A DNA stretch of 64,000 nucleotides, taken from an uncultured Nitrospinota bacterium (GTDB lineage: Bacteria; Tectomicrobia; Entotheonellia; J063; CAVPRW01). The notes under the pieces are model-generated. The model was not told where the DNA came from. It ran no database searches and saw nothing but the letters and a program-made list of their open reading frames with translations. Positions within the stretch are counted from its first letter, which is position 1, and each line of letters starts with the position of its first letter. The position numbers and the translations under genes were made by a program. Below are positions 1-38,691 of this stretch, in pieces. The stretch covers positions 5,793-69,792 of the forward strand of contig CAVPRW010000004.1 of the NCBI GenBank assembly GCA_963707985.1, written 5' to 3'.

Positions 1-102
1 GGAGGCTGTGTGAGCCCACGAGCGCCACGATCTGTGGACGCGGCACCTGGCCGGTGGCGCCTGCCCGAGTGGCGCAGCGCCAGAGCGCCTGGGGGGGCAT
101 GA

Positions 103-1030
103 GCCAGGTGGGGAGCGCGTGTTGGGCCTGAGTGGTGCACGCCGTATCACGCGGGTTCCGCACGTGGGGCCCCGCGGGGCCTCACGTGCCTGGGGCGCGG
201 CGGTGACATCGGGCTGGTGACCCGGGGTGGCGGTGGCGACGGTGGTGGCACCGCGGCAGGGGCTGACCCGGGTGAGCACCGGCCGGTTCCCAGGGCTCAG
301 GACGCCGTCCGAGCGGACGGTGCGGCAGCGGTCCGGCAGCCCGTGCGGCAGCAACCGGCGCCGGACCGCCTCGGCAGGCACCGTCGAGGTGGTGACCGGA
401 GCCGTGGCCGCGTCCTTGTCCGGCAACGTGCCGTGGCCCTCTTCCCGCGTGAGGACACGGGTGTGGCGGAGGGCCACGCGCACGCTGGACGGGGCCAGGT
501 CTCGGAAGGCGGCCGCGCCACGGCCGACGGGCGCGCAGGGCACGACCCCGTCCGTATGCCAGACGTGGGCCTCGACGAGCGGGCACAGGGCGGTCGGTTG
601 TCGGGACGCGCGGAACGTCGCGCGGAAGCGTCCCGACCGGGGGGTGACGTGGACCAGGCCGTCTGGGCGGGAAGGCCCCCAGGCGCCCACGGCCGAGCAG
701 CGTTCGCACCGCTTCGAGGCTCAAGAGCACTGGCCGTTTGTTCGCGCGCGGGGCGCGCACACAGCTGCGGGGAGTCCAGTCGCGGTGGAGGGTGGACGCG
801 CAGCCGCACGTGAGGCCGTACCGTGCCATCATGCTGGCGCTCCGAGCGGACGGCTTGACAGGCGTGAGGTCCCGGAACTCCTGGCGGAGTGCTTCCGCGG
901 TGCTCACGTCTGGGGACTGGTGAGCGTGCTCCGCCAGTCGGCGTACGGCCCTGACGTCTCGCACCTGGGTACGTGCAGACACGCCCCGGAGCTGAAGGCC
1001 CTCGAGCATGCGCTGGCGCCGCGCGGTCAT
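103..1030 (-). mobile_element. Decayed IS91-like element: N-terminal part of the tyrosine recombinase (SAM-like domain, ~1030-690) joined by internal deletion to the C-terminal part of a Y2 (HUH) transposase (~680-103)
   Basis: Minus strand reads MTARRQRMLEGLQLRGVSARTQ..SPD..LRQ (integrase N-terminus, family type MTxLRQRMIEDLQLRGLSxRTQ). After a frame change it reads FRDLAPSSVRVALRHTR and RRLLPHGLPDRCRTVRSDG (family type FRYLAPYIFRVAISNNR and RRFLQHVLPxxFxKVRYYG), then a degenerate CxxC (GPTCG) and terminal RSPP. Confidence 0.85.
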
Positions 1031-1150
1031 GGCGATCCCGCCTCTGAGGTGGGTGATGGAGCGCACCGGAAGGAGCGGTCTACTGGGCTCGCGACCGCCT
1101 GAGGAGGCGTCACTTAGGGGTGGGCCGTGCCCAACTGCGCGCAGCGCTTA

Positions 1151-1213
1151 GTTCAACCACTTGCTGGAGCGGATGCGCAAACAGCCGCGCGCCGGTGAGC
1201 TTGGCCGTTCTTG
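1151..1213 (+). other. Degenerate attC-like recombination site (solitary)
   Basis: R'' GTTCAAC (matches RYYYAAC), 5-nt spacer, L'' GCTGGAGC, inner stem GGATGCGC/GCGCGCC, L' GGTGAGC, 6-nt spacer, GTT. The 63-bp length and 5/6 spacing fit attC. R' (GTTCTTG) and two L-box bases deviate. RBS GAGGAGG plus ATG follows at ~1250-1260. Confidence 0.45.
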
Positions 1214-1448
1214 CGACACGAGGGTGCAAGTTGCACGGCTGGACAGGAGAGGAGGCTATGAGCCAGGCGTACGCCCCCGGAGTCGCCCATGCGCACGCAC
1301 GGGGGACGGCGGAGCCGGTACGGGACGCGGGAGGAAGCGAAGGCTGGCCTGTCATGGGGCCGAGAGGGGGGCATGGCCCCATAGGCGCGCACTTAAGCGC
1401 TTCAATAATGCAACGAGGACCAGCATAGCCATGTCTGTCAGATGATGG

Positions 1449-2130
1449 TTGCCACACCATCACCCTCTTCCGGAGGTGTCTCTGCTGCTCTTGCCGCATC
1501 ATCCCGACCGTGCCGTCGAAGCACCATTGGCGCGTGTGGAGGACACGTGGACGACCGAGGTGGTGCCGCGCGTGCCCGTGGACCTCGCCGCGCCGGCTCG
1601 CACCCTGAAAGCCTTCCAGCGCGTCCGTCGTCTGGCCACGCCGTACGAGCGGCTCCGGGCCGTGCTCGCGTCTGTCCTGGGCCCCTGGTCTCTGCGCCGC
1701 CTGGGGGCGTGGGCGGTGCTGATCGGGCTCGCGGATCGCTCCGAGGCCGCCTGGCGCAAACGGCTGCGGGCCTGTCGTCCCTGGTGACGCTGGCTCCTCA
1801 GTGAACTGGTGGCGACCCCGCGGGTTGTGGACCCGCCGCCCCCTCAGGCCCTGGGGCGTGTGCTCCTGGTGGATGCCAGCAGGCTCCGGCAGCCCGGCGG
1901 CACCGGGGATGACTGGCGGCGACATCTGGCCGATGACTGCACCGCTGGCCGGCTTGGGCCGGTGCGGGTGACGGACCGGTACGGGGGCGCACAGCCTCGT
2001 GTTCAAACGGATGCAACAACGGCTCCGGCTCAATCAGATCCGGAGCACGCACCTCGCGAGTGTCGAAGCCACCGTGCGGGCGTGGCTCATCGCCTGGGCC
2101 TGGCCAGAAGGGGCCATGGCGACCATCCGC
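1449..2130 (+). mobile_element. Decayed IS4-family DDE transposase with in-frame stop (1785-1787) and large internal deletion (~1990)
   Basis: Recognisable blocks [52 protein letters not shown] (first catalytic Asp region), VRVTDRYGG, then a jump to LVFKRMQQRLRLNQIRS..VEATVRA (C-terminal catalytic region). Confidence 0.8.
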
Positions 2131-2365
2131 CAAGTCTAACTACTACACCGTGGCCGTTGTCCGCTGTCCAGAGCAGGGCGAGGGGGAGGCCCAAGACGTC
2201 GCACGTGACATGATCCCATAACGGCGACCTTCTGGGACACACCTACGAGAAGCGACAACGTTGACATCAGACCAGCCACACGTTCAGAGTGGAGCATCCA
2301 GGAGCAAACATTCCTGAAAGGGGAGCCATGGCATGACATCGAACCAACATTCACACGGGCTACCG

Positions 2366-2782
2366 ATGCGTGTGTATACCATCGGCTATGGAGGGCGCTC
2401 CCCAGGTGATTTTGTGGCACTACTTCAACAGGCGAACATTCCGCTCGTGGTGGACGTGCGCCTGCGGCCAGACAAATCCAGTATGGGAGTTTACGTCAGG
2501 GCCAGGACCGCGGATAAAGGCATCCAGGCCTTATTGGCTCGCGCCAACATTACATACGTGTCAGCGGTGGAGCTCGGAAACCTCTTTATGAATTGTGAGG
2601 ACTGGCGTGAGCGCTATCGGCGCTTGTGGGATTACGCCGGAGACATACTGGCTGAGCGCCTGCGCCAGCTTCCCACCCCCTTCTGCCTGATGTGTGCGGA
2701 GCAGCATGCAACCGAGTGCCATCGTCAGTTCATCGCAGCCTATCTTCTCCAACACGGGTATACCGTCGAACACCTTGAGTAA
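2366..2782 (+). CDS. DUF488 family protein
   Basis: VYTIGYGGRS, VVDVRLRP, ELGN and CLMCAE...CHR motifs typical of DUF488. Confidence 0.85.
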   Translation: MRVYTIGYGGRSPGDFVALLQQANIPLVVDVRLRPDKSSMGVYVRARTADKGIQALLARANITYVSAVELGNLFMNCEDWRERYRRLWDYAGDILAERLRQLPTPFCLMCAEQHATECHRQFIAAYLLQHGYTVEHLE

Positions 2783-2857
2783 CCCCACAACCCGGAGGTT
2801 TGTATTGCCCCACCGCACTCGACCAGTGCGGCAACTGGCGGAACGTTTCTCCGGTGT

Positions 2858-3124
2858 TTAGAGAGCAGCGCTATGTATGGTGATAAGCCAGGATTGCCCG
2901 CCACCCTGTGCCACATGCTCAAGGGCAGATTCCGTCTGTGCTGGACGGAATCGCTCCCCTCGACTATCCCAGACTCGTAGGAGCGTCATCCGGAGGGCCG
3001 CTGTGCGGTTCTCGGACCCCCCAGCCAGCCACTGCCCGATGCGCTGGAGCCAATGTCCTCGTGCATATTGGGTTGACTTGCCAACATGGGTTCCCCACAA
3101 GATCGTCTGGCCATGTGCTGACAT
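2858..3124 (-). CDS. Small hypothetical protein (88 aa, MSAHGQTILWG...)
   Basis: Clean ORF with strong RBS GAAGGAGA 6 nt before ATG; no recognised domain. Confidence 0.55.
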   Translation of the reverse strand: MSAHGQTILWGTHVGKSTQYARGHWLQRIGQWLAGGSENRTAALRMTLLRVWDSRGERFRPAQTESALEHVAQGGGQSWLITIHSAAL

Positions 3125-3250
3125 GTGATCTCTCCTTCAATTGTGGTGTGTATGATACTTGCACACTTCCGCGGCTTGGACTTCACCTCCACCCTTGTGT
3201 CCAAGCACTTGGTGGGCAATATAGACCTCGACCATCAAAAGAACCAACGG

Positions 3251-3279
3251 ATTGTTTTCATGGCATTCATGAAAACAAT
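3251..3279. promoter_or_regulatory. 11-bp perfect inverted repeat ATTGTTTTCAT-N7-ATGAAAACAAT (candidate operator or terminator stem)
   Basis: AT-rich perfect IR between the hemW 3' end and the start of the 88-aa gene. Confidence 0.4.
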
Positions 3280-3368
3280 TGATGGACCAAGCAGACGACC
3301 AGACGTTTAATTACCGGCAGCATGGGGGTACGACACCGGGGACGAGACTAGGGAGGGACCTGACCAGG

Positions 3369-4628
3369 TCACGAGATGTTCTGTGAGGAAGGCTGCTCCG
3401 CCGCCACTGGCGTGGCGGCATCATCGGCGGCAACAAGCCGGGCAAGCACTGCATCGATCACCAGACGGCCTCGGTCGGTAAGGCACAGGTGGCCGTCACG
3501 GTACCGCAGATGGCCAGAGTCTATCAGCTCGGCGATGGGCTCAGCATAAGCGCCGGGGAGATGAACGCCGTATGCACGTGTGAAGACTTCGAGGTCGATC
3601 CCTTCTCGGAGCCGCAGGCCTACCATGAGGCCCTCATGAAAGCGACGTGTCCGATCGATGCGCTCAGGCACACCTGCGGCACTACCGTCCGTTGAGATCG
3701 CACGGATATATCGTCTAGGCAGTCGCTCATTCTCGCGGCGATAACCATGCAGATAGGCATGCGCCCCGGCGCCAAAGCCAAGGTATTCGCCGTGCTGCCA
3801 GTAGTGCAGGTTATGGCGCGAGCGCCAGCCCGGCAATGCGTAGTTCGAGATCTCATAATGCACGTAACCGGCAGGGGACAACAGCTGATCAGCGCGCTCG
3901 AACATCGCCACCTGCACCTCCTCATCGGGTAGGGTCAGCTCGCCGCGTTGTTGTCGTCGATAGAATGGTGTGCGCTCCTCGATGCTGAGACCATACACGG
4001 CAATATGCGTCGGAGTGACGGCAAGAGCCTCGTGCAGGCTCCTCTCCCAGGTGGGGAGGGATTGCTCTGGTAGGCCGAACATGAGGTCCAGATTGAGGTC
4101 CATGAATCCCGCCTGTCGTGCCCATACGAGGACACAACGCGCATCGACCGCCGAGTGCAAGCGGTCGAGTCGACGCAGAAGGGCATCGTCAAAGGCCTGC
4201 ACGCCAATGCTGATGCGATTGAAGCCACCCGCACGCAATACTTCAAGGCCGACCAGGTCGATCGTGCCGGGGTCGGCCTCAAGCGTAATTTCCGCATCCG
4301 CTGACACGGGAAAGCTGTCCCGAATCAGGCTGAGCAGGCTGGTAAGATCGGCGGGAGCGAGCGTGGAAGGCGTGCCCCCACCAAAATAGACGGAAGGCAC
4401 ATGATAGCTCATCCATGGGCGCTCGCTGGCGGTGTGCTCAATCTCGCGTCGTAGGGCGGAGATGTACATCTGGGCTGTGTCACGGCGATACAGGTAGGCG
4501 TTAAAATCGCAATATCCACACTTCTGGATGCAGAAGGGAATATGCACGTAGATTGTCAGGGCCTGCGTCGCTCTCCGGCGTAGCACCGGCAACACCGCGC
4601 CTGCACGGGCGGTGTCATCACCATCCAT
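3369..4628 (-). CDS. hemW: Radical SAM heme chaperone HemW (HemN-like)
   Basis: YVHIPFC-IQKC-GYC (CxxxCxxC), YFGGGTPS, YEISNYA and HNLHYW (HNxxYW, typical of HemW). Start uncertain (4628 or 4655). Confidence 0.88.
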   Translation of the reverse strand: MDGDDTARAGAVLPVLRRRATQALTIYVHIPFCIQKCGYCDFNAYLYRRDTAQMYISALRREIEHTASERPWMSYHVPSVYFGGGTPSTLAPADLTSLLSLIRDSFPVSADAEITLEADPGTIDLVGLEVLRAGGFNRISIGVQAFDDALLRRLDRLHSAVDARCVLVWARQAGFMDLNLDLMFGLPEQSLPTWERSLHEALAVTPTHIAVYGLSIEERTPFYRRQQRGELTLPDEEVQVAMFERADQLLSPAGYVHYEISNYALPGWRSRHNLHYWQHGEYLGFGAGAHAYLHGYRRENERLPRRYIRAISTDGSAAGVPERIDRTRRFHEGLMVGLRLREGIDLEVFTRAYGVHLPGAYAEPIAELIDSGHLRYRDGHLCLTDRGRLVIDAVLARLVAADDAATPVAAEQPSSQNIS

Positions 4629-4678
4629 CAATAGGCTTTGCAGCAACGCAGGCATCCACGTGTTTCCCCGCTATGCGC

Positions 4679-4879
4679 TTAGGCGGTTTTAGCCGCCTGC
4701 CGTGTCCGGTAGTGGTAATCGATATTCTGGATACCGCCGTCTGTCGACATGATATAGCAAAAATACACACCACGGATGGCCATGGTTTCGGTATCCCGCA
4801 CTAGCAGGTTGCCGTTTTTCAGCTCGTCCAGCAGTTCCAGGTCAGACGCTTCGAGCACGGCTTTTTGTTTCTCGGTCAT
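4679..4879 (-). CDS. Small hypothetical protein (66 aa, MTEKQKAVLEASDLELLDELKNG...)
   Basis: RBS GAGGGAGG upstream of ATG 4879; co-oriented between addA and hemW, overlapping the addA 3' end. Confidence 0.5.
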   Translation of the reverse strand: MTEKQKAVLEASDLELLDELKNGNLLVRDTETMAIRGVYFCYIMSTDGGIQNIDYHYRTRQAAKTA

Positions 4880-11974: not shown

Positions 11975-12180
11975 ATGCGGCCTTGCGCATGAACTCGTGC
12001 GATGTGCCGGTCTTCTGGCGTTCGGCAGCAGGGGGAAGACTGCGGCGCTTGAGAATGTTGCACCGGTCTGATCACTGATGCCATAGCCCAGATGCGCCAG
12101 GGCCCCCACAATACGGTCATAGCCCCAAGAGCGATTGTCCTGCGCCAGCCAAACGACGAGGTCTTCGAGTTCCTTTTAAG
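11975..12180 (-). pseudogene. Transposase remnant (HTH/linker of an rve integrase-core transposase)
   Basis: KELEDLVVWLAQDNRSWGYDRIVGALAHLGYGISDQT, frameshift, then NILKRRSLPPAAERQKT; no catalytic core present. Confidence 0.7.
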
Positions 12181-18216: not shown

Positions 18217-20698
18217 ATGGACTTTTACGCGGTGCTGGATCAGGTCCTCGCGCTGCTGCGCCAGCGAGGTCGCGTCTCGTACCGGGCGCTCCAGCGCCAA
18301 TTCGACCTCGATGACGCCTACCTTACCGACCTGAAAGACGCCCTTGTGTTCGCAGAACCCCGTGTGGTGGAAGACGAGGGGCGCGGCCTTGTCTGGGTGG
18401 GGGCACCCCCCGCCGCGGAGCCAGACTCCCGCCAGCAGCCCGAGGTCGAGCGACAGCTCTACACGGTGCTCCTCGCGGTGACAGCGCTGCTCCAGCGCGA
18501 AAAGCGTGTCACCTATCGCACCCTGCACTACATCTTCGGCGTTGACGAGGCGTGCCTGCACGCTGTGCGGGATGAGCTGAGCTTCCGACAGCTGGGGCGC
18601 GAGGACGGCTGCCAGGGGCTTGTCTGGACAGGGGAAGATCCGCCGGATGCGGCCACCGCTACCGCCCTGCGCGCCGCGCCCGACACCGGCATGGCGCCGT
18701 TCCCTGTTCCCTCACGTCCGCCGCTGCATTCCCCAGAGGTGCCTCGACCGCTGAATGGACTGACTCCAGCACTGGATGGGGTGTCGTCTTTCCCCTTGGA
18801 CGACGTAGTGCCACACACGCCAGACGACGTGCCAGTCATCATCCCTGAGTTAGCACGCAGCGCTCCTGACGCGGAACGGCGACAACTCACGGTGCTGTTC
18901 TGTGACCTGGTCGGCTCGACCCAGCTCTCCGGCCAGCTCGACCCCGAAGACCTGCGCGCGGTGGTGCGCGCCTACCAGGAGGCCGCGGCCGAGGTCATCC
19001 AGCCCTACGCGGGCCATATCGCTCAATATCTCGGGGATGGGCTGCTGGTCTATTTTGGCTACCCCGCGGCCCATGAAGACGATGCCCGGCGTGCCGTGCA
19101 TACTGGTCTTGGCATCGTCCAGGCGATCGCCACCCTGAATACCCGTCTGGCGGCACAGTACGGAGTGCCACTCGCCGTGCGGCTCGGCATCCACACCGGC
19201 CCCGTCGTCGTGGGGGAGATGGGTGGGGGTGGGCGGCACGAACACCTGGCGCTCGGGGAAACGCCCAATCTCGCGGCGCGGCTCCAAGCTCTCGCTCCGG
19301 CCAATGCGGTGGTCATCAGCGCCGTGACGGCACGGCTGGTGCGCGGCACCTTTGCCCTGGAAGATCTGGGGACTCACGCGCTCCACGGGGTCGCAGAGCC
19401 GATGGCGCTCAGCCGTGTGCGTGGCTTATTGGCGACGCCCAGCCATGACGAGGAGTTTGTGACTGCCGGAGTGCCTGTCCTGGTGGGCCGGGAAGAGGAA
19501 AGCGGGCTGCTGCGCCGACGCTGGGACCAGAGCAAAGCCGGGTTGGGGCAGGTCGTCTTCGTCAGCGGCGAGGCCGGCATTGGCAAGTCGGCCCTGGTGG
19601 AGCGGCTGCGGGCGCAGGTGCGCGCCGAGGGGTTGCCGCGTATGGCCTTTCGCTGTTCGCCCTATCACACCACCAGTGCCCTCTATCCCATAATCACCCA
19701 CCTCGAGCGCCTGTTGCAGTTTGAGCCGGACGATGCCCCTGCCACCAGGCTGGCCAAATTGGAGGCGGGGCTGCGGCCCTATCGCCTGCCGCTGGCCGAG
19801 GTGGTGCCGCTGTTGGCTGGGCTGCTGTCAGTGCCGCTGCCGGCAGAGCGCTATGCGCCGTTGACGCTGACGCCGCAGCAACAGAAACAGCAGACGCTGG
19901 ACGCGCTGCTGGCGTGGCTCGTGGCGGAGGCCGAGCGACAGCCGGTGCTGCTGGCGTGGGAAGACCTGCACTGGGCCGACCCCACCACGCTGGAGGTGCT
20001 CGGGCTGGTGATCGAGCAGGCGCCCACCGTGCCCATGTTGCACGTGCTGACGTATCGCCCGGAGTTCAGCCCGCCCTGGCCGCCACGCTCCCACATGACC
20101 CCTCTCGTGCTCAACCGCCTGGAGCGCCAGCAGGCCGAGGCACTGATCACCCTGCGGGCGGGAGGCAAAATCCTCCCAGCCGAGCTGGTACAGTACACCG
20201 TGGCCAAAACGGATGGGTGCCGCTGTATGTCGAAGAGCTGACCAAGATGCTGCTGGCTCCACTGCTACGGGAAGAGGCGGACCAGTATGTGCTCACCGGG
20301 CCGCTGCGCACGGTGGCGATTCCGGACACCTTACAGGATGCGCTCATGGCCCGGCTGGATCAGCTCCAGACGGCCAAAGAGGTGGCGCAGCTCGGGGCAG
20401 TGCTGGGGCGGGAGTCTATACGCTCGCCTCCGGGGCGTCTTGCTCCTGCGGCAGACGAGGACGCCACAGGCGGAGGCGGAAACCTGGTTGCAGCGGGCAC
20501 CTCGACATCGCCCGCCGCCAGGAGGCGAAATCACTGGAGCTGCGGGCCGCCACGAGCCTCAGCCGCCTCTGGCAGCAGCAGGGCAAGCGTGCCGAAGCCC
20601 ATGCGCTGCTGGCGCCGATCTACGGCTGGTTCACCGAGGGCTTTGACACCGCCGACCTGCAGGACGCCAAGGCACTGCTGGAGGAGCTGGGCTGCTGA
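18217..20698 (+). pseudogene. Class III nucleotide cyclase-AAA(STAND)-TPR copy 1; duplicated N-terminal head domain, most of the TPR region deleted, several frameshifts
   Basis: [31 protein letters not shown], Walker A GEAGIGKS, Walker B WEDLHW. Frameshift ~20215; LGRE is joined directly to the (E)VYRLRG region at ~20415; ends [22 protein letters not shown]. Confidence 0.85.
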
Positions 20699-22673: not shown

Positions 22674-23099
22674 ATGAGCACATACCTGTCTGCCGAATTG
22701 CGCCGTCGACTGGTTGAAGTGGACGACCACCGTTGTGCCTATTGTCAGACAACCGAAGCCAATACCGGCCAGCCAATGGTTGTAGACCACATCATCCCCG
22801 GAGCACAAGGCGGCGAAACCACGTTTCACAACCTGTGTTTTGCCTGCCGCCGGTGCAATGAATTCAAAGGGCCAACCACCAGGATACAGGAGCCACTTAC
22901 CGGCGAACCGGTGCCCATATTTCACCCCCGTCAGCACGCATGGACCGACCACTTCGCCTGGGATGCAGCTGGGATACGTCTTATAGGGCTGACAGCTATT
23001 GGTCGGGCCACCATTATCGCCCTCAACATCAATAACGAGTTCATCGTTGATGCGCGACGTCGCTGGGTCGGTGTCGGCTGGCATCCGCCGGCGCTGTGA
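22674..23099 (+). CDS. HNH endonuclease (zinc-binding)
   Basis: RCAYC, VDHIIP..QGG, NLCFACRRCNEFK, IFHPRQHAWTDHF, WHPP. Confidence 0.88.
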   Translation: MSTYLSAELRRRLVEVDDHRCAYCQTTEANTGQPMVVDHIIPGAQGGETTFHNLCFACRRCNEFKGPTTRIQEPLTGEPVPIFHPRQHAWTDHFAWDAAGIRLIGLTAIGRATIIALNINNEFIVDARRRWVGVGWHPPAL

Positions 23100-23120
23100 A
23101 CAATAGCGCCGAAAAATACA

Positions 23121-26100
23121 TCACGGCTCCTCCCCTAAGGTATCGAGCAACGCCTTGGCCTCTTGCAGGTCCGTCGGTGTCAAACCCCTCGGTGAACCAG
23201 CCGTAGATCGGCGCCAGCAGCGCATGGGCTTCGGCCTGCTTGCCCTGTTGCTGCCAGAGGCGACTGAGGCTCATGGCGGCCCGCAGCTCCAGCGATTTCG
23301 CCTCCTGGCGGCGGGCGACGTCCAGGGCCCGCTGCAACCAGGTTTCCGCCTCCGCCTGCGACGTCCCCGGCTGCCGCAGGAGCAAGACGCCCCGCAGGCG
23401 ACAGACTTCCGCTTCCCACCAGCGTTCCTCATGCTGCTCCACCAGGGTGTGGGCCTCGACCAGCGCCTGAAGGCCGTCTTCCGGGTGGCCCAGGTGGGCA
23501 GAGACGTCCGCCAGCAAGGTGCAATAGTATGCGACGAGCAGAGGTGCCTCAGTGGCTCGGTAGGCGGCGATCCCCTGGCGGACCTGGCTCAGCCCCTCCT
23601 CGCCCTGGCCCTGCATGGCCAGCGCCCACCCGCGCAAGATCGTTCCCGCGGCCGCCCAGAATGGAAAGCCCTGCTCGATCGAGAGCGCGACGGCGGCCTC
23701 TGCCTGCTCGTGCACGGCTGGCACGTCCCAGCGAAACTGATAGACGTAGGCCGCCCAACACCGCGCACGCGCCAGACTATAAGGATGCGGCAGCTCGTGC
23801 GCCAACGCCAGGGCCTCGTGGAGGCGGGCCAGGGCTTGCTCCGGATACCCCAGTAACCAGAGGGTCACAGCGGCATGGCCTCGGCAGGCAACACCCGGAT
23901 CCTGGCCCATACGGAATACCGGAGCACGGTGCTGGTCTGGTGTGTCGCGTGCGATGGCTTCCTCCAGGTGCTGGCGGGCAACAGGCAACGCGCCCAGGCA
24001 GAACGACGTAAACCCGAGGGCAGAGTGGGCGACGACCGTGAGCGCGGGGTCGTCGGCACGTTGCGCCAGGCGCAGCAAGGTTTCGCCGATCTCCCGCGCT
24101 GTGTGCAACTGTAGCCGTCCTACATAAAACCGGTACAGACCATACAGGACCGGGACCAGCTCTGGGGTCTCGCCCACCTGCTGACACAACGCGTGTGCCT
24201 GGATGTAGGCGTGCTCCACCTCGGGCGCTCCCTGTCCTTTGGCCATCACCAGTGCTGCGCCGAGGGCTGTGTACAGGGTTAAGGCTTGCTGGGTATGCTC
24301 AGGCGTCTCTGGCAGGGTCGTGAGCAGCTCGATCCCGGTGGTGCAAGTGGCTGATGGCTTCCACATGGGCCGAGCGGTCACTGGCCTGTTGGCCCGCCCG
24401 CAGCCAGTAGACCACCGCCTGCTCGGCGCAGCCCGCCGCGGTGTAGTGCTGGGCGACCAGCTCTGGTTGCGTCGCGACGGTCTCCGGGAACTGCGCCTCC
24501 AACGCCTGGGCAATACGCTGGTGGTACTGCTGGCGGGTGCTCCGCAACAACGACTGATAGGCCACGTCCTGGATGAGCGCATGCTTGAACGTGTAGGTGG
24601 CCTGCGGCGGCACCCCCCGCTGGTACAGGAACTCCGCTGCCACCAACTGGTGCAGTCCCTGCTGCACGATCCCCTCCTCCCACGGGGCCACGGCGCGCAG
24701 CAGCGCGTAGGAAAACTCGCGCCCCAGGGTGGCCCCGAGTTGGGCCAGGGCCTTCACCGCCGCGAGGCGGTCGAGCCGCGCCATGAGCGAGTCGTGCAGC
24801 GTGGCGGGAATGGCCAGCGGGTGCAGGGGCCCGGTCAGCGCATAGCGCTCGTCCCGCTCCTGGAGCAGTCCCGACTCCAGCACCATCTTGGTCAATTCCT
24901 CGACAAACAGGGGCACCCCATCGGTCTTGGCCACGATCTGCTCGACCACCTCGGGAGGCAACACCTTGCCGTGGGCCACCTGGCGAATCACCTCCACGGC
25001 CTGTCGTCGGGGCAAGCGGTTGACCGTGAGCTGGGTGAGATGGGCCCGCCCCGTCCAGGGCGGGCTGAAGTCCGGCCGACAGGTGAACAGCGTCAGGATG
25101 CGGGCGGTGGGGCCTTGATCGACCAGGAGGCTGAGCAGCTCGAGCGTGGACGGATCGACCCAGTGCAGGTCTTCCATGACAAAGAGCACGGGCTGCTGGG
25201 CGGCGATGCGCAGCAGGATCGTCAACAGGACGTGGAGGGTCTGCTGCTTCTGCTGCTCAGGCGACACCGTCACGGGCGCATAGTCCGCCGGCAGCGGCAG
25301 GGAGAGGAGGGCGGCAAAGAGGGGCACGGCCTCCGCCAGTGGCAGGCCATACTGCACCAGGAACCCCTCCAGTTTGCCCACCTTCTGCTGGGGCGACTCC
25401 TCCCGGTCGAAGCGCAGGACCACCCGCTCCAGCAGGTCGATCAGCGGATACAAGGCGGTGTGCTGGTGGTAGGGCGAACACTGACACGGGGTGAGCCAGG
25501 CCCGGGGCTCGGCGGCCACCTGGTCCGTCAGCACCTGCACCAGGCGCGATTTGCCGATGCCGGCTTCGCCGCTGAGGAGCACGACCTGTCCGAGGCCGTC
25601 TTTGACCTGCGCCCAGCGCTCGAGCAGCACCCCGATTTCCTGCTCCCGACCCACCAGCGGGGTCCACCCGGTACTGCTGGCGGCTTCCAGGCGACTGCGG
25701 GCCATACTCTCATAGAGCACGCGATAGACCGCCAGCGGCTGCGCCAGGCCTTTCAGGAGCGGCGTGCCGAACGGCTGGCAGGCAAAGAACCCACCGAGGA
25801 GCTGAAAGGTCGCCGCACTGATCACCAGGGTATTGGGGGCGGCGAGGCCTTGCAGGCGGGCCGCCACGTTGGGGGTCTCGCCGAGGGCCAGCTGTTCCTG
25901 GCGCGCCCCGTCCCCCACGTCGCCCACCACCACCAGCCCGGTATGGATCCCCAGGCGCACGGCCAGATGCACCTCTCGCTCCGGCCCCAGGGAGGTATGG
26001 AGTTGTCCCATGGCCTCGACGATCCCCAGCCCGGCCCGCACCGCCCGCTGGGCGTCATCTTCGTGCGCCAGGGGGTAGCCGAAGTAGACCAGGAGACCAT

Positions 26101-26575
26101 CACCGAGGTACTGGGCGATATGCCCCTCGAAGCGGGCGATCACTTTGGCGCAGGTGGCTTGATAGGCCTGCACCACCTGGCGCAGCTCTTCCGGGTCGAG
26201 CTGGCTCGCCAGGCGCGTCGAGTCCACCAGATCACAGAACAGGACGGTGAGCTGCCGGCGTTCGGCATCAGGAGGGTGAGGTGTGGTGGGTGGGGAAGCC
26301 CCCTGGGGGGAGTAATCTTTCTGGCTGACAGGCGGTGGGGGGTATTGGGGTGCTGGAGGAGCTAGCGTCTGGGGCGCTGCTGTGTCATCGGTCCAGCGTA
26401 AGCCACGACCCGCGTCCTCGACCACCTGTGGATGCGCGTAGAGGAGTTCGTCCTTGAGGACCGCCAGCTGCTCGTCGTCCAGGTGGAACTGGAGCTTCAG
26501 CGCGCTATAGGTCACCCGGCCTCGGCGCTGGAGGAGGGCCACGACTTGGTCGAGGACATCATAAAAATCCATCAT
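23121..26575 (-). CDS. Cyclase-AAA(STAND)-TPR copy 3, full length, with frameshifts near 24340 and 23172
   Basis: Head domain, [51 protein letters not shown] helices, C-terminal [15 protein letters not shown]. Confidence 0.88.
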
Positions 26576-30922: not shown

Positions 30923-31423
30923 ATGCGCCTCGTAAAGGGGGGTTGGATTTGGGAGGATGGCCCCCTCGGCCGCCCTGCTGATCCACTCCCCCCAACCGCT
31001 GCCCCACTGTCAACCGCACCTTCTGTCAGAGACACGGCAGAAGCGCCACTCGCCTACACGCTGCCGTACCTTACCGAGCGGATTCTCGCCTCCCGCGCCG
31101 CCCTCGAAGACGAACGCAAGCAGGTGACCGTCCTGTTTGCTGATCTGAATGGCTGGCTCGTCCTCCAGGCCGGCTCGGTCTCGTACGGCCAGGCAACAGT
31201 CGAAGCGCGCTACGGCGCCGCCATGCCCCTGGCCGACGAGCTCGGGATGCGCCCGCTCCAGGCGCACTGTCACTGTGGCCTCGGCACCCTATACGCCACG
31301 ACTGGCCAGCCAGAGCATGCCCGTGCTGAATTATCGATCGCGATTGAGCTGTACCGCACCATGGAGATGAGCTTCTGGCTGCCCCAGGCGGAGGCGGCAC
31401 TGGCGCGGGTGGAGGGGCGGTGA
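30923..31423 (+). pseudogene. Cyclase-STAND copy 4: in-frame patchwork mini-gene
   Basis: APLAYTLPYLTERIL..ERKQVTVLFADL (cyclase start) + GWLVLQAGSVSYGQAT (post-Walker A piece) + LADELGMRPLQAHCH..FWLPQAEAALA (C-terminus) in one 166-aa ORF. Confidence 0.75.
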
Positions 31424-34061
31424 TGGACTTTTATACGGTGCTCGATCAGGTGGTCGCCCTGCTGCGCCGCCGCGGGCGGGTGTCCTATCGGGCGCTGAAG
31501 CGACAATTTGCCCTGGATGATGAGCTGCTCGCCGACCTCACGGCTGAACTGCGCTATGCGCGCTATCCGATCGTCGAGGACGATGACCAAGGCCTGGTTT
31601 GGACTGGGGAGACGGCGCCACCATCGGAGCACACTCCTCCACTGCCTCGGCCCGAAGCCGAGCACGCCCCACACTCCGACCGGCCACCGGCCGAACCGCA
31701 TGCACCAGAGGCCGAACGCCGCCAGCTCACGGTGCTGTTCTGCGACCTGGTGGACTCCACCGTACTGGCCAGTCAGCTTGACCCGGAAGAGCTCCGCGAG
31801 ATGGTGCGGGCATATCAAAGCACGTGCGCCGCTGTTATTCAGCGCTATGACGGGCATATTGCGCAGTATCTCGGCGATGGTTTGCTCGTCTACTTTGGCT
31901 ATCCCCAGGCGCACGAAGATGACGCGCAGCGGGCGGTGCGGGCTGGGCTCGGGATGGTGGAGGCCATGGGACAACTCAGTACCCGCCTGGGGCAGGAGCG
32001 AGGGGTATCCCTAGCCGTACGCCTGGACATCCATACCGGTCAGGTGGTCGTGGGCGAGATCGGAGGTGGGGCGAAGCATGAACAGTTGGCCCTCGGCGAG
32101 ACGCCTAACCTCGCCGCCCGCCTGCAAGGGATTGCGGCGCCCAATACGCTGGTGATCAGTGCCGCGACCTCACAGCTGCTCGGCGGCTTCTTTGCCTGCC
32201 AGTCGCTCGGCACCCCGCTCCTGAAAGGCTTCGCTCAGCCGCTAGAGGTCTATCAGGTGCGGTATGAGAGTATGGCTCGTAGTCGTCTGGAAGCCGCCGG
32301 CAGCTCCAGCCTGACCCCACTCGTGGGCCGGGAGCAGGAAGTAGGGCTGTTGCTGGAGCGCTGGGCGCAGGTCAAGGAGGGGCTCGGGCAAGTGGTGCTG
32401 CTCAGCGGCGAAGCCGGCATCGGCAAATCGCGTCTCGTGCAGGTACTGACGGCACAGGTGGCCACTGAGCCCCAGGCCTGGCTGACGCCGTGTCAATGTT
32501 CGCCCTACTACCAGAATACCGCGTTGTATCCCATGATCGATCTGCTGGAGCGGGTGGCGCTGCGCTTCGAGCGGGAGGAATCGTCGCCGCAGAAGCTGAA
32601 CAAACTGGAGGGATTCCTCGTGCAGTATGGCCTGCCGCTGGCCGAGACCGTGCCCCTCTTCGCCGCCCTCCTCTCCCTGCTGCGCAGGTGTTGGAGGCCC
32701 GCTTTCCCGAGCTCTGTGAGGCCCAGCCCGAGCTGCTGGCCCAGCACTACACGGCGGCAGGCTGTGTCGAGCAGGCGGTGCGCTACTGGCAGCGGGCGGG
32801 CCAACACGCCAGCGACCGCTCAGCCAATGTGGAAGCCATCAGCCACCTGAGCACAGGGATCGAGCTGCTCAAGACGCTCCCAGAGACGCCCGAGCGTATC
32901 CAGCACGCCGTGACCCTGCACATCGCCCTCGGCGCGGCATTGCAGATGGCGAAAGGGCTCGCAGCACCCGAAGTGGAGCACGCCTACACCCAGGCACGCG
33001 CGTTGTGTCAGCAGGTGGGCGAGACCCCAGAGCTTATCCCGGTCCTGTATGGTCTGTGGCGGTTTTATACCGTACGGTTGCAGTTGCACACAGCACGAGA
33101 TCTCGGCGAAACACTGTTGCGCCTGGCACAACGTGCCCACGACCCCATGCTCTCCGTCGTTGCCCACCATGCCCTCGGATGGACGAGGTTCTGTTTTGGC
33201 GCGTTGCCGGCTGCCCGCCAGCACCTGGAGGAAGGCATCGCACACTATACGCCAGACCAGCGCACGGCGTTGGCATTCCGCATGGGCCAAGACCCGGGTA
33301 TTGCCTGCCGAGCCTTGGCCGCGATGACCCTCTGGTTACTGGGGTACCCGGAGCAAGCCCTGGCCCGCCTCCATGATGCCCTGGCGTTGGCACACGCGCT
33401 GTCGCATGCCTATAGTCTGGCGTTTGCGCAGTGGTTGGCGGCCATCGTCTATCAGTTTCGCCGGGACGTGCCAGCCGCGCACGAGCAGGCAGAGGCCGCC
33501 GTCGCGCTCTCGACCGAGCAGGGATTTCCACAGTGGGCGGCCTATGGAACGAGCTTACGTGGGTGGGCGCTGGCCATGCAGGGCCAGGGTGAGGAGGGGC
33601 TGGCGCAGGTCCGCCAGGGAATCGCCGCCTGGCGGGCCACCGGGGCGGCGTTGTTGGTCCCATACTTGTATACCTTGCTGGCGGAAGTCTGTGCCCATCT
33701 GGGCCACATGGAAGATGGCCTCCGGGCGCTGGCCGAGGCCCACACCCTGGTGGAGCAGCATGAGGAACGCTGGTGGGAAGCGGAAATCTCTCGCCTCCGG
33801 GGCGTCATGCTCCTGCGGCAGCCGGGGACGCTGCCGGCGGAGGCGGAGACCTCCTTTCATCAGGCCCTGGCCGTGGCCCGCCGCCAGGAGGCCAAGTCGC
33901 TGGAGCTGCGGGCCGCCATGAGCCTCGCTCGCCTGTGGCGGCAACAAGGCAAGCGGGATGAAGCGCGCGAGCTGCTGGCACCCATCTACGCCTGGTTCAC
34001 CGAGGGCTTTGACACCGCCGACCTCCAGGAGGCGAAGGCCTTGCTCGCGGAGTTGTCGTGA
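31420..34061 (+). pseudogene. Cyclase-AAA-TPR copy 5; ~260-codon internal deletion with frameshift at 32680
   Basis: Head, cyclase and Walker A are present. LLSL is joined to AQVLEARFP, so Walker B and the helical linker present in copies 3 and 6 are missing. TPR region and C-terminus intact. Confidence 0.85.
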
Positions 34062-35305: not shown

Positions 35306-38300
35306 ATGATGGATTATGAAGCGATCCTGTCACAGATCGTCGCCCTCCTGCAGCGGGAAGGCCGCATCGCCTATCGTGTCCTCAAGCGACGGCTGCAGCT
35401 CGATGATGACCTGCTGGAAGATCTGAAGGATGATCTGATCTATGCGAAGAAGCTTGCCAGCGATGAGGAGGGGAAGGTGCTGGTGTGGGCTGGTGCACAG
35501 GCGGAACCATCACCCCCAAGCGGCTCCCCCTCGCCCGAAGCTCCCCCTCTAGAGGCCGAACGACGTCAGCTCACCGTGCTGTTTTGTGACCTGGTGGACT
35601 CGACCGAGCTGGCCAGCCAGCTCGACCCCGAAGAGTGGCGCGAGGTGGTGCGGGCCTATCAAGAGACGTGCGCCAAGGTGATTGCCCGCTATGAGGGGGA
35701 GATCGCCCAGTATCTCGGCGATGGCCTGCTGGTCTACTTCGGCTACCCCCTGGCGCACGAGGATGACGCCCGGCGGGCGGTGCGCGCCGGCCTCGGGATG
35801 GTGGAGGCCATGGGGCAACTCAATGCCCGCCTGGCGCGCGAGCACGGGGTGCAACTAGCCGTGCGTCTGGGCATCCATACGGGTCAGGTGGTCGTGGGCG
35901 AGATCGGGGGCGGGGCGAAGCATGAGCAGTTGGCCCTCGGCGAGACGCCCAATGTCGCCGCCCGCCTGCAAGGGATCGCTGCGCCCAATACGCTGGTGAT
36001 CAGTGCCGCGACGCTTCACCTGCTCAGCGGCTTCTTTGCCTGCCAGTCGCTCGGCACCCCACTCCTGAAAGGCGTCACCCAGCCGCTGGAGGTCTATCGG
36101 GTGTTGTATGAGAGTATGGCCCGCAGCCGCCTGGAAGCGGCCGGGAGCGCTAGTCTGACCCCGCTGGTGGGCCGCGAGCAGGAGGTGGCGTTACTGCGGG
36201 AGCGCTGGGCACAGGTCAAGGACGGTCTCGGAGCAAGTGGTGCTGCTCAGCGGCGAGGCGGGCATCGGCAAATCGCGCCTGGTGCAGGGGCTGACCGAAC
36301 AGGTGGCCAGCGAGCCCCAGGCTTGGCTGACCCCATGCCAATGTTCGCCCTATCATCAGAACAGCGCCTTGTATCCGCTGATCGACCTGCTGGAGCGGGT
36401 GGTGCTGCGCTTTGATCGGGACGAGCCCCCCCAGCAGAAGCTTCGCAAGCTGGAGGGGTTCGTGGTGCAGTATGGCCTGCCGCTGGCAGAGGCCGTGTTC
36501 CTCTTGGCCACCCTCCTCTCGCTCCCACTCAGCACCGACTATGCCCCACTGGCCTTCTCGCCCGAGCAGCAGAAGCAGAAGACCCTGCAAGCCCTCCTGA
36601 CGATCCTGCTGCGTATTGCCGCCCAGCAGCCCGTGCTCTTCGTCATGGAAGACCTGCATTGGATTGATCCGTCCACGCTGGAGCTACTCACCCTCCTGGT
36701 GGACCAAGGCCCCACCGCCCGCATCCTGGCGCTCTTCACCTGCCGGCCGGACTTCAGCCCGCCCTGGACGGGGCGGGCCCATCTCACCCAGATGACGCTC
36801 AACCGCTTGCCCCGACGACAGGCCGTGGAGGTGATCCGCCAGGCGGCCCACGGCAAGGTGCTACCTCCCGAGGTGGTCGAGCAGATCGTGGCCAAGACCG
36901 ATGGGGTGCCCCTGTTTGTGGAGGAATTGACCAAGATGGTGCTGGAGTCGGGACTGCTCCAGGAGCGGGACGAGCGCTATGAGCTGACCGGGCCCCTGCA
37001 CCCGCTGGCCATTCCCGCCACCCTGCACGACTCGCTGATGGCACGGCTCGATCGCTTGGCATCGGTGAAGGGCCTGGCGCAACTCGGGGCGACGCTGGGG
37101 CGCGAGTTTGCCTATGACCTGCTACAGGCCGTCGCCCCCTGTGACGAGGGCACCTTGCAACGGGGGCTGCACCAGCTGGTGGAGGCGGAGTTCCTCTACC
37201 AGCAGGGGCTGCCGCCGCAGGCGACGTACCGCTTCAAGCATGCCCTGATTCAGGATGCCGCCTATCAGTCCGTACTGCGGAGCACCCGCCAGCAGCACCA
37301 TCAGCGCATTGCCCAGGTGTTAGAGACACGGTTCCCGGAGACTGCCGAGACGCAACCAGAGCTGGTGGCGCACCACTACACCGAGGCCGGGCGCACAGAG
37401 CAGGCCATCCCTTATTGGCAGCGGGCAGGCCAGCGCGCGGTTGAGCGCTCGGCCAATCTGGAAGCGGTGGCACACCTCACGAAAGGGCTGGAGGTGCTCG
37501 CCACCCTGCCAGACACCCCCGAGCGCGCTCAGCAGGAGCTGCTCGTGCAGACCACCATGGGCCCAGCGTTGATGGCTACCAAGGGCTATGGGTCCCCTGA
37601 GGTGTTACGCACCTATGCCCGGGCGCGAGAGCTCTGCCAGCAGGTAGGGGAGACCCCGCAGCTCTTCCAGGTGCTACGGGGATTGTGGTACTTCTACCTC
37701 ATACGGCTGGAGTTACGGACAGCGCGGGAGCTGGGGGAGCAGCTCCTCACCCTGGCCCAGCATGTCGGCGACTCGGCGCTGCTCTTGGAGTCCCACTATG
37801 CCTTAGGGAACACCTTGAACTATCTGGGCGAGTTCGCCGCTGCCCGGGCATACTTGGAGCAGGGCATCGCCCTCTACGACCCCCAGCGGCACCGTGCCCA
37901 TGCCTTCCGCTACGGGCAGGACCCCGGGGTGGCTTGCCGATCCTATGCCGCCGTGACCCTGTGGTGGCTGGGCTATCCAGACCAAGCCCTGCAGAGGAGC
38001 CACGAGGCGCTGACGCTGGCCCGGGAGGTGGCACACCCCTTCAGCCTGGCATACGTTCTGTTCTTTGCCGCCCTTCTCCATCACTTCCGCCGGGAGGGGC
38101 AACTAACCCAGGAGCGGGCCGAGGAAGCAGGTCGCGCTCTCTAGCGAGCATGGGTTTCCGCAGCTGTTGGCGGGGGGAAGATTCTTCCAGGGCTGGGCGT
38201 TGGTCGAGCAGGGACAGGGAGCGGAGGGGATGGCACAGATGCATCAGGGCATGGCCGCCTGGCGGGCGACGGGGGCCGAGGTGGTTTGGCCGTATTATCT

Positions 38301-38691
38301 TGCCCTGCTGGCCGAGGCCGATGCTAAGGGGGGACAGGTCGAGGAAAGTCTGACGCTGGTGGCCGAGGCGCTGGCGGCGGCAAACAACAGGGAGGAGCGC
38401 CGCTGGGACGCCGAGCTGTATCGGCTCAAGGGCGAGCTGCTGCTGCAGGATTCGGCAGCCCACCAGGTGGAGGCGGAGGAGAGTTTGGAGCAGGCCCTCG
38501 CCGTGGCCCGCCGCCAGGAGGCCAAGTCGTTGGAGCTGCGGGCCGCCATGAGCCTCAGTCGCCTCTGGCAGCAGCAGGGCAAGCGAGCCGGAGCCCATGC
38601 GCTGTTGGCGCCGATCTACGGTTGGTTCACCGAAGGATTTGACACGGCGGATCTACGAGAGGCCAGGGCATTGCTGGAGGAGCTCGCGTAA
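35306..38691 (+). CDS. Cyclase-AAA(STAND)-TPR copy 6, full length, with frameshifts near 36230 and 38130
   Basis: Same domain order and motifs as copy 3; extended -10 TGaTATAAT at 35207-35215. Confidence 0.88.

Follow-up and report, generated by a model that had tools for sequence, protein, structure and literature searches.

Why do base changes of a single class, A:T→C:G, make up most of the damage in a dead insertion sequence of an uncultured bacterium, and what kind of process could have produced them? The question is raised by an IS4-family relic near the start of the window, by which we mean the whole stretch of DNA analysed here (64,000 nucleotides, C4:5793-69792). The source genome is an uncultured metagenome bin assigned to Nitrospinota (8.28 Mb, 59.2% G+C, 48 contigs, 6% contamination), and the HemW protein encoded in the window is closest to that of an unclassified metagenome bin (85% identical) and then to those of Armatimonadota (~45%). 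G+C content is 65-78% over positions 1-2130 of the window and ~58% beyond. Further islands of 65-71% G+C lie at 18500-20500, 23000-26500, 31000-34000, 35500-38500 and 55000-57500; they may be natively G+C-rich paralogous genes or may bear the A:T→C:G signature. The features that the argument relies on are the following, in window coordinates.

1..1220, minus strand: IS91-family (Y2_Tnp) relic of 73-77% G+C, identified by Pfam Y2_Tnp and Phage_int_SAM_4.
1379..2130, plus strand: dead IS4-family (DDE_Tnp_1) copy, identified by blastn to six other genomic copies, alignment, intact 450-aa PF01609 homologues and a tree.
1379..1401, plus strand: left terminal inverted repeat (CCATAGGCGCGCACTTAAGCGC...) with the G-run target before it, aligned to the left ends of all copies.
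1482..1484, plus strand: former start codon, ATG changed to CTG (A>C); ATG in 6/6 intact outgroups.
1785..1790, plus strand: TTA>TGA stop and CTC>CGC, both T>G, by which WLLW became W*RW (codon comparison with L019).
1920..1940, plus strand: WRLHLAYDF changed to WRRHLADDC by three T>G (codon comparison with L019; motif conserved in 19 intact proteins).
1995..1996, plus strand: junction of a 452-bp internal deletion, found by alignment; the same deletion occurs in C23:161670-162732.
2130..2131, no strand: truncation point of the relic; host DNA common to related genomes restarts at 2127-2274.
2131..4879, no strand: flanking host DNA (intergenic, DUF488, hemW) with an ordinary spectrum, used as a control through the changes private to this genome relative to 8 related loci.
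2333..2782, plus strand: DUF488, within the control flank.
3369..4655, minus strand: hemW, within the control flank.

The region C4:1-7900, which includes window positions 1-2130, is an element graveyard with four or more different repeats next to one another (C4:3-1618, C4:3016-4497, the IS91 relic and the IS4 relic), and synteny with related genomes breaks there. The full IS4 element measures ~1513 bp, and the relic retains its 5′ 616 bp and 135 bp of its 3′ third. The inverted repeats of the element (CCCATAGGCGCGAACTTAAG... and ...CTTAAGTTCGCGCCTATGGG) are both found in the full-length copies on contigs C9, C45, C2 and C23 and in metagenome loci; the right repeat, ...CTTAAGT(T/A)CGCGCCTATGG in full-length copies, is missing from the window relic, the 3′ end of which was lost at 2130. 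Other genomic copies were located by blastn and alignment on C9, C45, C10, C2, C19 and C23, and none of those found is intact. The copies on C9, C45 and C10 have one unbroken frame that lacks ATG and contains TGA and TAG stops, and the C2 copy, which gives a weak PF01609 match (E = 1.3e-4), carries frameshifts. A sister copy at C23:161670-162732 is 98.9% identical to the window relic over 752 bp.

A read-through query from the relic retrieved hundreds of intact 450-aa transposases with PF01609 from metagenomes. These intact homologues, in which PF01609 (DDE_Tnp_1) is present, are at most 93% identical to the query, and element DNA was retrieved for twelve of the metagenome loci. The relic is assigned to IS4 by its homology with intact members at the DNA and protein level, because its fragments alone give no Pfam match. 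No close IS relative was found in related genomes, and a profile search of genome contigs with the transposase alignment gave no match. Intact relatives conserve LLVDAS, AVADNGYGY and LYRARWQVELVFKRMK. The catalytic set (D, D, E plus Y-(2)-R-(3)-E-(6)-K) is incomplete in the window relic, where only LLVDAS and the tail LVFKRMQ are left: the 452-bp deletion takes out the second D and the E of the DDE triad, and the remaining IS4 catalytic motifs also fall inside it. As judged from its sequence, the window copy is a relic of an IS4 member and not a functional member. The element as such shares with the IS4 family its terminal inverted repeats, the single 450-aa DDE transposase of the intact relatives and short target duplications; the window copy differs in being a non-functional fragment, and its sub-family inserts between a G-run and a C-run. 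The target duplication is a perfect 8-bp GACAACAC at C2 and has a single mismatch at C9, and in the window the right end is lost. Copies of the sub-family are flanked in the form GGGGGG-N5-8 / element / N5-8-CCCCCC with the spacer duplicated, a setting seen at window 1340-1378 (left side), at C9, C45, C2, C19 and C23, and at L013-L022. The target seems to be a G-run/C-run palindrome, perhaps a REP-like hairpin. In a maximum-likelihood tree, the window relic and C23 adjoin the intact locus L019, C19 stands beside L020/L021, and C9/C45/C10 stand beside L018, followed by C2, L013 and L014.

Compared with L019 (protein P0021), the nearest intact relative, 26 of the 30 base changes in the part of the window relic that L019 covers are A:T→C:G. 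This confirms the A→C / T→G signature that the initial annotation had proposed from consensus motifs. The motifs were right, as WRLHLAYDF and WLLW are invariant or nearly so in 19 intact homologues, and the codon table against L019 recovers every replacement that was listed: CTA>CGA at 1920, TAT>GAT at 1932 and TTC>TGC at 1938 in the first motif; TTA>TGA at 1785 and CTC>CGC at 1788 in the second; Q>P by CAG>CCG at 1836 and 1959, with a further one at 1593; Y>S (TAT>TCT, 1671); L>W (TTG>TGG at 1686, 2083 and 2101); K>Q (AAA>CAA, 2014); and I>R (ATC>CGC, 1737). These derived residues are absent from intact family members, and the substitution classes are strongly skewed.

The direction of change was established by site-wise three-taxon counts with outgroups, and no ancestral sequence was built. 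On the lineage of the window relic and C23, A:T→C:G accounts for 23/27 changes unpolarised and 16/18 outgroup-polarised. Polarised counts for the other damaged lineages are 55/68 on the C9/C45/C10 stem, 25/41 for L018, 17/30 for C19 and 15/41 for C2, and 16 changes are common to the shared stem of L018 and the C9 group. The six intact-element branches, also polarised, have 2/47, 9/66, 8/68, 5/68, 6/77 and 1/12 (4-14%), and their total of 31:307 differs from the relic at Fisher p = 8e-18. Even at synonymous sites the intact branches show no A:T→C:G excess, and the effect must therefore be host-lineage specific. Other classes are scarce: G:C→A:T amounts to 1/18 on the relic stem and 5/68 on the C9 stem, and A:T→G:C to 0/18 on the relic, 4/68 on the C9 stem and 1/41 on L018, where A:T→C:G number 16, 55 and 25. 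GC-biased gene conversion was rejected on these counts, as it should favour all weak-to-strong changes.

In a four-lineage parsimony analysis restricted to genomic copies, the window lineage had seemed balanced (20/140), since live divergence and damage were mixed on its long branch. The apparent balance was resolved because the close intact relative L019 was found. Within genomic families, mutated versions often outnumber the others, and majority-rule polarisation fails for that reason. The base composition is likewise to be read against intact relatives. Intact IS4 elements have 65-67% G+C (ORFs 66-68%, third codon positions 76-80%, second positions 52-54%) and dead copies 67-72%; the relic's high G+C is mostly inherited, and the mutations contribute only 2-6 points.

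The signature stops at the element end. Related loci, all without the relic, align from window 2127-2274 on, and the changes in 2131-4879 that are private to this genome include 26/170 A:T→C:G, with 9/39 over 735 aligned non-coding positions. The relic (23:4) differs from the adjacent intergenic host DNA (9:30) at Fisher p = 8e-7, and from all flanking host DNA (26:144) at p = 9e-13. The argument against a regional artefact held: DUF488, hemW and the 735 bp of flanking non-coding DNA are ordinary, and the independent assemblies L103, L104 and L018 carry the signature. The rve remnant at 11975-12180, which had been offered as a further control, proved unusable, its relatives in the genome being only 70-76% identical. 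A metagenome search with DUF488 returned relatives of at most 91% identity, none with the relic, so that an orthologous-insertion test was impossible.

Host DNA elsewhere behaves like the flank. L018 is flanked by DNA orthologous to C31 (92.6% identity), and the 630 differences there comprise 62% transitions and 19% A/C+G/T. At fourfold sites, which have 79% G+C, the 243 differences between L018 and C31 orthologues are 145 transitions, 45 C/G, 42 A/C+G/T and 11 A/T. Duplicated host DNA within the genome (24 pairs, 78 kb, 93-99.8% identity) shows 238/984 A/C+G/T differences (24%) and 554 transitions; the examined pairs of this clean class are mostly host genes, e.g. GroEL and glycogen phosphorylase. 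Clean repeats of the same assembly include a 6-kb pair (4/28), GroEL and a 7-kb pair (22/190). The size of the 6-kb pair suggests a putative rRNA operon. Ordinary genes at 94-97% identity with a normal spectrum are also found between C10:1-7034 and C11:119223-126271 and between C19:52-62 kb and C20:52-59 kb; these duplicates may be strain variants binned together (6% contamination) and not true paralogues. In the class-level relative G005, 20 IS3-type copies differ at 142 positions, of which 85 are transitions and 34 are A/C+G/T (24%). This control is clean, and the signature is therefore lineage-specific, neither general to IS copies nor produced by the method.

To see how far the signature extends, the genome was compared with itself and recent duplicate pairs were sorted by their differences in the A/C+G/T class. 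Mobile-element pairs (28 pairs, 44 loci, 63 kb, each 0.7-2.1 kb) have 480/586 such differences. Affected are IS4, several IS91, IS3, IS66, IS630, IS1634, IS481, IS701 and IS1-like elements and three group II intron families. Against a C43 relative, the IS91 relic at the start of the window gives 118/128 A/C+G/T, and its stem 66/76. The supposition that the cause is not specific to one element is thereby upheld, by this IS91/Y2_Tnp relic (118/128, stem 66/76), at least eight further IS families and the group II introns. Pairs are often one-directional (37:2, 20:1, 2:28, 2:122), and pristine and heavily mutated copies of one family coexist. Mutated states are also shared, with 13 changes common to three IS3 copies and 55 to three IS4 copies. 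Independent assemblies give 35/41 for L103 (NCBI metagenome), 29/71 for L104 (JGI) and 25/41 for L018 (ENA). The window relic is thus one instance of a lineage process that affects mobile elements of at least ten families. The most extreme pair is an IS630 pair, C17:381642-382876 and C30:23-1257 (122:2, ~22% of A/T sites), in which 122 one-directional A:T→C:G changes within 1235 bp raise G+C from 55.7% to 64.5%; each of the two copies is located at the end of a contig.

The timing of the changes can be read from pairs of fixed copies. Two IS91 relics on C4 and C29 (1.4 kb, 96.8% identical) have 66/76 A:T→C:G on their stem and only 4/26 since their split. When the IS91 and IS4 lineages are combined, A:T→C:G makes up 144/171 changes on stems against 11/44 on terminal branches (p = 1e-13). 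In other families, many pairs that are still alike owe nearly all their differences to A/C+G/T (15/16, 18/20, 9/9). Together, the contrast between stems and terminal branches and these still-similar pairs indicate that the process is on in some phases of a lineage and off in immobilised relics. The word 'erosion', used in the initial annotation, is misleading in this respect, since the changes precede copy multiplication (144/171) and are rare after fixation (11/44). The pattern is neither slow decay in place nor a genome-wide bias, and is probably not an artefact. We infer that the process is tied to the active or mobile phase of an element and not to its time as dead DNA.

The C23 copy is a mosaic. 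Its window-homologous part has 23 A:T→C:G in ~150 A/T sites and the part beyond has 0 in ~105; its last ~330 bp are near-identical to L019, with only one transition. The simplest reading is gene conversion from the truncated window relic, which would explain the coincidence of the two boundaries.

The changes themselves are uniform in most respects. They are strand-symmetric (A>C 28, T>G 27 on the C9 stem, intermixed), as are those of the group II introns (A>C 9, T>G 10), and A>G and A>T are rare on the C9 stem. Strand-coordinated clusters, as from single-strand damage or a deaminase-like enzyme, were rejected by runs tests. Mutagenesis by a diversity-generating retroelement, which is adenine-specific and acts on one strand, was discarded on the intermixed 28 A>C and 27 T>G. 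Changes are spread uniformly along full-length copies (KS p = 0.29-0.84), and no indels were found on the C9 stem. In the relics selection was absent, because changes fall evenly over the three codon positions. All 16 trinucleotide contexts are mutated and no sequence motif was found around the changed sites; sites with a 5′-G are about half as prone (0.027, compared with 0.05-0.09 for other 5′ bases). The coldest contexts are GTC (6/301, 0.02), GTT (2/155) and GTG (11/392), and the hottest CTA, TTA and TTG. Templated misalignment was ruled out, as a neighbouring G is not enriched at T>G sites.

Damage of one class in mobile elements and not in neighbouring host DNA suggests a previously undescribed mutational process that acts only on mobile DNA. 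Our preferred reading, to which we assign a probability of about 0.4, is that bases are misincorporated when element-length DNA is synthesised away from the normal replication fork, in a process coupled to element activity. Such synthesis could be transposition-associated copying, or gap and recombination repair; candidate chemistries are oxidised dGTP incorporated opposite A, or dCMP opposite T or an abasic T site, and the errors would evade proofreading and mismatch repair. Mutated copies would then be copied on, by mobilisation in trans or by gene conversion, and the window copy and C23 would be such a pair. Locus-restricted A:T→C:G from oxidised-nucleotide misincorporation has precedent (PMC12318082). 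Several observations stand against this synthesis reading: the context is opposite to the published Pol IV pattern (hot at GXC, where GTC here is 0.02), the GAA/TTC hotspot reported for mutT strains is missing (TTC 0.045, close to the mean), and the 9:10 symmetry of the introns would not arise from a single round in which the host synthesises one strand following reverse transcription. Near-identical triplets have 1-5 private changes each, which corresponds to ~1-3 errors per event if errors arise per transposition event; at that rate, stems with 55-126 changes need tens of serial events with the intermediates lost. The genome has MutS and one DinB homologue. Its best Nudix match reaches 83.6 bits, compared with the MutT cut-off of 97.9, a cut-off that only 3/14 control genomes reach, and the sole MutY-like gene (C19:48640-49330, 228 aa) comprises the catalytic domain alone, without the C-terminal 8-oxoG-recognition domain. 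The repair-gene content does not decide between the readings. The best MutT-scoring Nudix gene (C19:53356-53724) lies 4 kb downstream of the MutY-like gene.

Other explanations account for parts of the same evidence. A dedicated genome-defence hypermutator would recognise active transposons and group II introns, change A:T to C:G until the element is dead and then leave it to normal decay. Confinement to mobile elements of unrelated mechanisms, retroelements included, would follow, as would the sharp edge at the element end, the inactivity in immobilised relics, the loads of up to ~22% of A/T sites with few other changes (C17/C30, 122:2) and the absence from the IS copies of the class-level relative G005. 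We nevertheless regard such a system as unlikely: no candidate gene is known for it, the changes have no motif, homology cannot be the cue when the C4/C29 pair (4/26) and duplicated host genes are untouched, and mutated copies went on multiplying (13 shared changes in IS3 and 55 in IS4, three copies each). It also counts against defence that we know of no enzymatic route to pure strand-symmetric A:T→C:G on double-stranded DNA. A homology-triggered, RIP-like process was rejected, C4/C29 (4/26) and the host duplicates (24%) being untouched. Alternatively, the elements may have acquired the changes in another replication regime, for instance on a replicon such as a plasmid or phage, or inside mutT-type mutator cells, and have entered the chromosome later. 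Many replication rounds in a mutT-like background yield pure, strand-symmetric, broadly context-independent and indel-free A:T→C:G (PMC12318082), and the pattern described here fits such rounds. That the changes are older than the present insertions, and that pristine copies stand beside heavily mutated ones within one family (37:2, 20:1, 2:28), is in keeping with an origin elsewhere. What makes such an origin improbable is that copies with a heavy load are dead (start codon lost, stops, deletions) and would have to be mobilised in trans repeatedly, and that the signature persists in the terminal differences of many chromosomal pairs (15/16, 18/20, 9/9) and occurs on nested branches of two host genomes with 92.6% identity; the genome also has no contig of deviant composition.

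Neutral decay of dead DNA under a lineage-wide mutT-like bias to G+C, visible only where selection is lacking, is hardly credible given the adjacent non-coding DNA (9/39 against 23/27 in the relic, p = 8e-7), the 42/243 A/C+G/T at fourfold sites beside 145 transitions, host duplicates of the same age as the IS pairs with 24%, and fixed relics with 4/26. In its favour are the even spread of relic changes over the three codon positions, with selection absent, the 79% G+C of fourfold sites, and a repair complement in which no Nudix protein reaches the MutT cut-off (83.6 vs 97.9 bits) and the MutY-like gene has no C-terminal domain. A genome-wide mutT-like bias was rejected on the flanks (26/170), fourfold sites (42/243), host duplicates (24%) and fixed relics (4/26). 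Loss of the green channel in two-colour Illumina chemistry causes T to be read as G and A as C, which matches the substitution class exactly, and mis-polished repeats in a long-read metagenome assembly are a related possibility; the source is a metagenome bin of 48 contigs with 6% contamination, and only repeats are affected. A sequencing or assembly artefact is nonetheless very unlikely, with identical changes at different loci and in NCBI, JGI and ENA assemblies, nested in a tree-like manner, and with other repeats of the same assembly clean (6-kb pair 4/28, GroEL, 7-kb pair 22/190); moreover, 5′-G is depleted and not enriched at T>G sites, and the C23 changes end exactly where homology to the window copy ends. 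MutY-driven biased gene conversion, in which A.G heteroduplex mismatches are repaired to C:G and rare alleles spread within a family, would suit the mutated states shared by several copies and the coincidence of the mutated part of C23 with the part homologous to the window copy (23 in ~150 vs 0 in ~105 A/T sites). Conversion, however, can spread an allele but not originate it; among 2-4 copies it could enrich a change by no more than a factor equal to the copy number, against an observed 20-100-fold excess, many changes are private to one copy (37:2), and C4/C29 show no drive, all of which leaves it scarcely plausible as the source.

Fungi, through RIP, and vertebrates, through editing enzymes, provide known cases of hypermutation limited to transposable elements. 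Literature searches returned no report of mobile-element-restricted hypermutation in bacteria or other prokaryotes. Similar to RIP in Neurospora and other fungi, one substitution class kills transposable elements here, is bounded by the element or repeat and spares unique genes. RIP, however, is C:G→T:A in a CpA context, needs duplication, affects both copies and belongs to a sexual cycle, whereas the present changes are A:T→C:G without a motif, often leave one member of a pair pristine and occur in a bacterial host. With APOBEC3 and ADAR, too, hypermutation is limited to mobile elements, but these enzymes deaminate single-stranded intermediates in a strand-specific manner (G>A or A>G); the changes found here are symmetric, intermixed transversions, and they extend to DNA transposons. 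The mutT mutator (8-oxo-dGTP opposite template A) resembles the pattern in its nearly pure A:T→C:G (16/18, 55/68, 66/76, 35/41) on both strands without indels, and differs in acting genome-wide, whereas here the host's intergenic DNA, fourfold sites and gene duplicates have an ordinary spectrum. A GAA/TTC hotspot has been reported for oxidised-dGTP mutagenesis (PMC12318082); TTC stands at 0.045 in our data, about the mean. In Pseudomonas aeruginosa, Pol IV (DinB) misincorporates oxidised guanine nucleotides and causes A:T→C:G at particular loci (PMC12318082). The concentration at loci and the dinB homologue in the genome are points of likeness, but the published hot context is 5′G and/or 3′C (GXC), where 5′-G is coldest here, and Pol IV was reported to act on host genes in regions that are difficult to replicate and not on mobile elements (PMC12318082). 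The IS4 element itself is ordinary; the pattern is RIP-like in outcome and mutT-like in chemistry, and fails defining features of both.

A single rare class thus dominates the changes (80-90%) across ten or more unrelated families of mobile elements, and DNA a few bases outside is unaffected. If the defence reading were true, this lineage would have evolved a prokaryotic equivalent of RIP or APOBEC based on a new chemistry. Whether it is a defence or a by-product of error-prone synthesis, the process drives element lineages in this host to a mutational dead end and is relevant to the control of IS load in bacteria. The A:T→C:G load could mark the past activity of an element, and local G+C can increase against the usual AT-biased mutation pressure. 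On the practical side, public protein databases contain hypermutated pseudogene ORFs, listed as full-length or long 'transposases' (e.g. P0005 from L018, P0016 from L103, and P0040, P0004 (L104)); gene callers report such frames because high G+C keeps them open.
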